Assembly: GCF_009931435.1 (NCBI RefSeq) | Contig: NZ_CP043414.1 | Length of the DNA: 64,000 nucleotides | From: Escherichia coli | Lineage (GTDB): Bacteria > Pseudomonadota > Gammaproteobacteria > Enterobacterales > Enterobacteriaceae | Strand: one strand, 5' to 3' | Translations under genes and position numbers: made by a program | The notes under the pieces: generated by a model | The model's database searches: none | Told to the model about the DNA's origin: nothing | The model's input: only the letters and a program-made list of their open reading frames with translations | In this document: positions 29,275-31,831 of the stretch, one piece after another | Numbering within the stretch: the stretch's first letter is position 1 | How the letters are laid out: every line of letters starts with the position of its first letter

Positions 29275-30775
<1,501 letters not shown>

Positions 30776-30790
30776 TGTTGACTCCGAGTG

Positions 30791-30806
30791 CTGGTTATCT
30801 ATCCAG
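30791..30806. promoter_or_regulatory. Non-canonical LexA (SOS) box CTGG-N8-CCAG upstream of cho
   Basis: ctggttatctatccag lies 16-31 bp upstream of the cho start; cho is a known SOS gene with a degenerate box. Confidence 0.5.
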
Positions 30807-30932
30807 TGTAACAGGCGGGGAGCGATTAAAAAAGAGGCGGGTCGATGACAAAGGTTACACCATGAGACGTGCTACGCCTGTCAGGCCTATTCGACTCCTG
30901 CAATGTATTGAATTTGCATAGTTTTGTAGGTT

Positions 30933-30965
30933 GAATAAGGCGTTCACGCCGCATCCGGCGTGAAC
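30933..30965. repeat. REP element
   Basis: gaataaggcgttcacgccgcatccggcgtgaac matches the REP core; between cho and nadE. Confidence 0.6.
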
Positions 30966-31003
30966 AAAGTACTCTTTTTCGCACAAACCAAATGTGCAAA
31001 TTA

Positions 31004-31831
31004 TTACTTTTTCCAGAAATCATCGAAAACGGTAATTGGCGGACGGCGTTTATGTTCGGTTTTCAGATACCAGTTCTCTATTGTTCTGGCGACCTGTTCA
31101 GGTAGGTTTTTCCCTTCCAGATAGTCGTCGATATTGTCATAGGTCACGCCGAGTGCCACTTCATCTGGCAGAGAAGGGCGATCATCTTCCAGATCGGCCG
31201 TTGGGGCTTTCTTATAAAGATGTTCCGGACAACCTAATGCCGCCAGTAACTGTTTACCCTGACGTTTGTTGAGGCGATACAGCGGATTAATGTCCGTACC
31301 GCCGTCACCATATTTAGTGAAGAATCCGGTAATGGCTTCTGCTGCATGATCGGTGCCCACCACGACACCGCTGGTCATACCCGCAATGCTATATTGTGCT
31401 TTCATCCGCTCACGCGCTTTTTCATTGCCACGGACAAAATCACTTAATTCAACACCCGCTTCGCGCAGCGCCTGTTCGCTGGCCAATACCGCGCCCTTGA
31501 TATTAACGGTTAATACGCGATCCGGTTGAATAAAGGCAATGGCATCCTGACAATCTTGTTCGTCGGCCTGAACACCATAGGGCAGGCGTACGGCAATAAA
31601 TTGCAGCGATTCGTTGCCGGTTTCCTGGCGCAGCTCATTAATCGCCATCTGGCACAGCTTACCGGCAAGCGTGGAGTCCTGACCGCCGCTGATCCCGAGC
31701 ACCAGTGATTTAATGAACGGATAAGTTTGCAGGTAGCTTTTCAGAAAATCGACACTACGACGAATTTCCTCTTCAGCATTAATCTGCGGTTTTGCGCCCA
31801 GCGCCTTTATTATTTGTTGTTGCAATGTCAT
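31004..31831 (-). CDS. nadE: NH3-dependent NAD+ synthetase
   Basis: 275-aa product [31 protein letters not shown]... Confidence 0.95.

Follow-up and report, generated by a model that had tools for sequence, protein, structure and literature searches.

The LexA box upstream of the excinuclease gene cho in Escherichia coli: an already described SOS operator conserved across the Enterobacteriaceae

The LexA operator, or SOS box, of the Gammaproteobacteria follows the consensus TACTG(TA)5CAGTA, and the box of the Escherichia coli K-12 gene cho (ydjQ) was reportedly described first by Fernandez De Henestrosa et al. in 2000. Among the LexA motifs upstream of UV-induced E. coli K-12 genes, the 25-mer TACACTGGATAGATAACCAGCATTC is given for cho (PMC3009722 Table 4), and in a review, cho (ydjQ) is placed under 'Known SOS box', with Fernandez De Henestrosa 2000 and Courcelle 2001 as sources (PMC6590174). 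According to the literature, Cho is damage-inducible and carries out the 3' incision at lesions on which UvrC acts less efficiently. A single box (heterology index, HI, 6.69) has been reported for ydjQ of Salmonella Typhimurium; nalidixic acid induced this gene 3.33-fold, and a ydjQ-gfp fusion gave no detectable fluorescence, pointing to low expression (PMC8072944). The box of Salmonella enterica ydjQ lies at the orthologous place, 13 nt before the GTG start codon, and has CTGG...CCAG ends like those of the cho box, although it is nearer to the consensus at the outer positions (TACTG...CAGTT; 21.9 bits with the matrix described below); in the subspecies arizonae and diarizonae, it reads TACTGGATGAATAACCAGTT.

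The window, i.e., the whole 64-kb stretch of E. coli DNA analysed here, contains cho on the minus strand at positions 29888–30775, as an open reading frame (ORF) of 295 amino acids with a GTG start. This ORF, taken from the ORF list, matched the NCBIfam equivalog for excinuclease Cho (NF007833) over residues 1–287, with 578 bits against a cut-off of 367, and showed weaker matches to UvrC N-terminal regions; judged by these matches, the product is the UvrC-homologous GIY-YIG nuclease responsible for 3' incision in nucleotide excision repair. It shares 98% identity with the Cho of a K-12-like strain. RefSeq annotates osmE, nadE, cho, and ves at the matching E. coli locus, and from their translations, we take the window ORFs around cho to be spy, ves, osmE, and chbB. 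The ves gene, which lies on the plus strand and is convergent with cho, has a TGA at about 29824–29826 where the K-12-like strain has TGG (GCGTGCTGATTCG vs. GCGTGCTGGTTCG). Compared with K-12 Ves, this codon presumably cuts the protein about 34 codons short; the sequence after the TGA is otherwise intact, and the TGA could be either a nonsense allele peculiar to this strain or an error of sequencing. In K-12, the 3' ends of ves and cho overlap by 41 nt.

The plus strand reads as the palindrome ctggttatctatccag at positions 30791–30806. On the gene strand, the full 20-bp box, CACTGGATAGATAACCAGCA, extends over positions 30789–30808 (minus strand), and its 16-mer core, CTGGATAGATAACCAG (30806–30791), consists of an inverted CTG and CAG 10 bp apart. 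Because the ORF starts at 30775, the palindrome is located 16–31 nt upstream of the GTG, as had been noted in an earlier reading made from the letters of the window (the sequence-only reading). In gene-strand order, the box is followed by 3 nt, the Shine–Dalgarno sequence GGAG (30782–30785, minus strand; read from the sequence and kept in the orthologues), 6 nt, and the GTG, so that 13 nt separate the box from the start codon. No second LexA box was found near cho, the next-best matrix score in 30700–31010 being 1.3 bits.

When the locus is set against that of E. coli K-12 (cho, b1741), no difference is seen in the 20-mer or its 5' flank, the box stands equally far from the GTG, and nadE lies upstream and ves convergently downstream, as in the window. 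The sole difference in the published 25-mer is directly 3' of the box, at position 30788, where the window has C and K-12 has T. A few more single-nucleotide polymorphisms occur elsewhere in the nadE–cho spacer in the alignment with a K-12-derived genome, but none of them falls in the operator. The proposal of the sequence-only reading that this is the LexA box of the SOS gene cho is borne out by the same sequence having been published for the UV-induced K-12 gene and by the listing as a known SOS box in the review. By its sequence, the site is thus the already described LexA operator of cho, real and conserved, and not a new one. The damage induction of cho and its status as a gene with a known SOS box come from the literature on the identical K-12 site, and would hold for the present strain by analogy.

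To score the site, we used a symmetrised LexA weight matrix built from 17 E. coli K-12 boxes (those of PMC3009722 Table 4, n = 18, minus cho). Such scoring had been suggested as a check in the sequence-only reading, and it gave the cho 20-mer 19.4 bits, inside the range of accepted sites and the highest value among the 63,981 positions of the window. From the exact score distribution, the probability of this score is 1.6e-7 per position, which corresponds to about 0.01 expected occurrences per 64 kb and about 0.8 per 5-Mb genome. These values bear on the idea that the palindrome arose by chance, CTG and CAG being very common in E. coli DNA. The bare CTG-N10-CAG pattern occurred 32 times in the window, against 13.6 times expected from shuffles, mostly in coding sequence and with poor matrix scores, and this geometry by itself is therefore no proof of a LexA site. 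However, a chance origin does not account for the score of the full 20-mer, nor for a box that is in place at all of the 79 orthologous loci described below, with invariant arms, a variable spacer, and control stretches scoring no higher than 5.7 bits. Chance is effectively refuted by these data, and we regard it as extremely improbable.

The second- and third-best matrix scores in the window (15.5 and 13.2 bits) belonged to the boxes of ydjM, which served as an internal positive control. These two overlapping LexA boxes, TACTGTACGTATCGACAGTT at 43887–43906 and CACTGTATAAAAATCCTATA at 43905–43924 (as read on the gene strand), immediately precede the ydjM ORF (43282–43884, minus strand). We take TACTGTACGTATCGACAGTT to be the known ydjM SOS operator sequence. 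CACTGTATAAAAATCCTATA matches a published ydjM box (PMC4576408 Table 2). Like the cho box, the ydjM boxes are SOS operators that were known before and that adjoin their gene on its upstream side, but they form an overlapping pair, one member of which lacks the CAG arm, whereas cho has a single box. A further candidate, CACTGGATAGATTATTAGCA at 45433–45452 (minus strand), was rejected: its first 12 nt are the same as in the cho box, but the CAG arm is replaced by TAG, and the score was 6.5 bits. This look-alike, which probably reflects chance similarity, is located at the 3' end of the ORF at 45427–46287, presumably yniA.

In terms of strength, the cho box ranked 11th among the 18 known boxes in leave-one-out scoring, below those of umuD, sbmC, recN, recA, and sulA and above lexA box 1 and the boxes of ruvA, ftsK, uvrD, dinG, dinB, and polB. 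Its heterology index is about 8 by our own calculation, compared with a range of 2–17 for accepted sites. The closest counterpart in sequence ends is the ruvAB box, CGCTGGATATCTATCCAGCA, which agrees with the cho box in its CTGG...CCAG ends and its GCA 3' flank and scored 18.4 bits against 19.4 for cho (leave-one-out), although it belongs to a different gene and has a different spacer and a greater distance to the start codon (PMC3009722 table offsets). Moreover, of the 34 half-sites in the other 17 boxes, 8 have G at core position 4, among them the two halves of ruvA, and G/C at positions 4/13 is the natural deviation seen most often. The description of the box as degenerate, weak, and non-canonical in the sequence-only reading was therefore overstated: the CTG and CAG arms are intact, the rank is 11 of 18, and the CTGG/CCAG ends are shared with ruvA. 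Judged by its sequence, the cho box is an ordinary, middling operator rather than a degenerate one.

The same scores bear on the view that the site is a true LexA site but too weak to matter, with cho being essentially constitutive or leaky in this strain, a view that carries the weak operator of the sequence-only reading to its extreme. The box falls about 8 bits short of the best boxes, has G/C at core positions 4/13 and C at position 1 of the 20-mer, and the induction of the Salmonella orthologue, at 3.33-fold, is modest (PMC8072944). Nevertheless, it outscores the accepted lexA box 1 and the accepted sites of ruvA, uvrD, ftsK, dinG, dinB, and polB, cho is among the UV-induced genes of K-12 (PMC3009722), and the box has been kept across the family, as shown next. 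We consider a site without functional consequence very unlikely.

The nadE–cho spacer was found in 5,425 of 5,426 complete E. coli genomes, and in 4,874 of the 5,426, at least 28 of the 30 nt of a query comprising the −10 element and the box (30789–30818) were matched exactly. In one divergent E. coli strain, the box begins with TACTGG... instead of CACTGG..., which is nearer to the LexA consensus. A search of species-representative genomes with the Cho protein identified 80 loci in more than 20 named genera of the Enterobacteriaceae (including Salmonella, Citrobacter, Klebsiella, Enterobacter, Kosakonia, Cedecea, and Buttiauxella), 79 of which had upstream sequence. At all 79 loci, the best matrix match in the 200 nt before the start codon was a CTG-N10-CAG box. 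These boxes scored 13.2–24.9 bits (median 20.4, n = 79) and ended 11–16 nt before the start codon, which was nearly always GTG, whereas control stretches at the same loci reached at most 5.7 bits (upstream) and 4.1 bits (inside cho). Among the 46 distinct boxes, positions 2–5 (ACTG) and 16–18 (CAG) were invariant and the spacer positions were variable. Core position 4 was G in 27 and T in 19 of the distinct boxes, and core position 13 was A in 32 and C in 13.

Two of the assemblies that contributed loci were unusual. In a metagenome-assembled genome (MAG) labelled 'Citrobacter sp.', the contig DXKH01000113.1 encodes a Cho that is 99% identical to the E. coli Cho of the window, and another contig of the same MAG has a Citrobacter-type cho; because one MAG contains both types, the bin appears to be mixed. 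The contig CACSKA010000006.1, assigned to 'Chryseobacterium sp. 18061', has an enterobacterial cho locus with 75% protein identity to the Cho of the window and a 20-mer LexA box identical to that of 'Citrobacter sp. 18056', which suggests that the assembly is mislabelled or contaminated.

The distribution of bases at core positions 4 and 13 also addresses the explanation that the palindrome is a hairpin in the cho leader RNA, or a DNA cruciform, rather than a protein site. The arms are able to form a 4-bp stem with an 8-nt loop, but this hairpin is marginal, with −2.4 kcal/mol and z scores of −2.0 (28-mer) and −0.8 (longer context). Furthermore, the two positions do not covary: the combinations were G/A in 18, G/C in 9, T/A in 14, T/C in 4, and T/T in 1 of the 46 distinct boxes, so that the G/A, T/C, and T/T boxes break the symmetry. 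The half-sites therefore drift independently, as is predicted for the site of a dimeric protein but not for a hairpin. In addition, the 5' arm is probably not transcribed, because the predicted transcription start site (TSS) lies inside the box, and an Rfam search to E = 1 found no match at the box itself and two matches elsewhere in the spacer. The probability that the palindrome acts as a hairpin or cruciform is, in our judgement, minimal.

A predicted extended −10 element, TGtTACACT, occupies positions 30805–30813 (minus strand), with the TG at 30813–30812 and the hexamer TACACT at 30810–30805; the 4 nt at its end are also those with which the LexA box begins. In the orthologues, the hexamer was TAyACT or TAGACT at 79 of 79 loci and the TG one base upstream was found at 75 of 79, and in an anchored alignment of 78 loci, the information content of the columns peaked at TGnTA. 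This conservation suggests that TGnTAyACT is an extended −10 promoter element, from which a TSS near 30798, inside the LexA box, is predicted. A simple scan of 30600–31100 with the −35/−10 consensus found no sigma-70 promoter, which an extended −10 promoter would explain; a terminator scan of the same interval yielded just one irrelevant, intragenic terminator-like site, and the Shigella TSS tables had no entry for cho, nadE, or ves.

The overlap of the two elements raises the alternative that the conserved block is only a promoter (−10 element plus start), or the site of another regulator, and that its resemblance to a LexA box is incidental. The 5' end of the box does coincide with the conserved TGnTAyACT, and the spacer, GATAGATAAC, is in our own reading loosely like the AT-rich sites of other regulators. 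However, all 46 distinct boxes have the distal CAG (positions 16–18) at 11–13 nt downstream of the −10 hexamer, an invariance that a promoter by itself does not explain, and the spacer, where another regulator's motif would be expected to sit, is the variable part of the box. Damage induction is also documented (PMC8072944, PMC3009722). A promoter or foreign regulator site without LexA is thus very unlikely, and the LexA operator remains the preferred reading of the block.

A second conserved element, CCGCCTCTTTTTT, was found in the anchored alignment of the 78 loci at positions 30828–30840 (minus strand), 20–32 nt upstream of the box, where it occupies the place expected for a −35 element. 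In other genera, a clear nadE terminator hairpin has this element as its 3' arm and T-tail; Escherichia lacks the 5' arm partner and has a REP-type hairpin upstream, but CCGCCTCTTTTTT is still kept. An identical string has been published under the name 'Motif 2' from the regions preceding UV-induced genes (PMC3009722). The element could be no more than a terminator remnant, or could provide A/T-rich upstream contacts for the cho promoter. Folding of the nadE–cho spacer of the window predicted no canonical terminator, and only the REP-type hairpin and a second hairpin. The former, a GC-rich hairpin at 30929–30965 (GTTCACGCCGGATGCGGCGTGAAC) just downstream of nadE, gave a sub-threshold match to the Rfam family naRNA4 (23.5 vs. 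59.5 bits). It is present in Escherichia, whereas most other genera lack it and have a simple nadE terminator hairpin adjoining the cho promoter. Between the REP element and the cho promoter, positions 30883–30925 (minus strand) matched the candidate sRNA ES036 (CssrF; Rfam RF02751) with 42.9 bits against a gathering threshold of 37.6 (E = 1.9e-7). This match is in the nadE–cho spacer on the strand of both genes and may be a fragment of the nadE 3'-UTR.

When these features are combined, cho may be transcribed across the Enterobacteriaceae from a −35-independent extended −10 promoter (TGnTAyACT), the hexamer of which is dual-coded with the first four bases of the LexA box and the −35 place of which is taken by the T-tail of the nadE terminator; we give this architecture an even chance of being correct. 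If it is, a single 30-bp block serves as terminator tail, promoter, and operator. The frequent G at position 4 of the box (27 of 46) might then reflect a constraint on the start site rather than LexA affinity. Our literature search found no description of this extended −10, operator, and terminator-tail architecture for cho, which would be a detail of a known system and may be recorded in RegulonDB or EcoCyc.

Taking these lines of evidence together, CACTGGATAGATAACCAGCA is very probably the LexA operator (SOS box) that controls cho in this E. coli strain, and chance, a promoter or other factor, a hairpin, and a non-functional weak site are unlikely even jointly. In undamaged cells, a LexA dimer would occupy the 20-bp site at 30808–30789 and cover the end of the −10 element and the predicted start, and RNA polymerase would be kept off the cho promoter because the box overlaps both. 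After DNA damage, as in classical SOS control, RecA on single-stranded DNA would stimulate the self-cleavage of LexA; the operator would be emptied, cho transcribed, and Cho made. At lesions that are poor substrates for UvrC, the 3' incision would then be made by the UvrC-like Cho.

Beyond correct annotation, the significance of the site is small. With cho and the two ydjM boxes, the window contains three bona fide SOS operators, which can be used to calibrate motif scans of this genome, and the CTGG/CCAG ends of LexA boxes represent normal variation rather than degeneracy. The footprint found at 79 of 79 loci across genera indicates what LexA needs (ACTG and CAG) and what can drift. For the organism, the site would explain why Cho, which serves nucleotide excision repair as the back-up 3' nuclease, is not produced until the DNA has been damaged.
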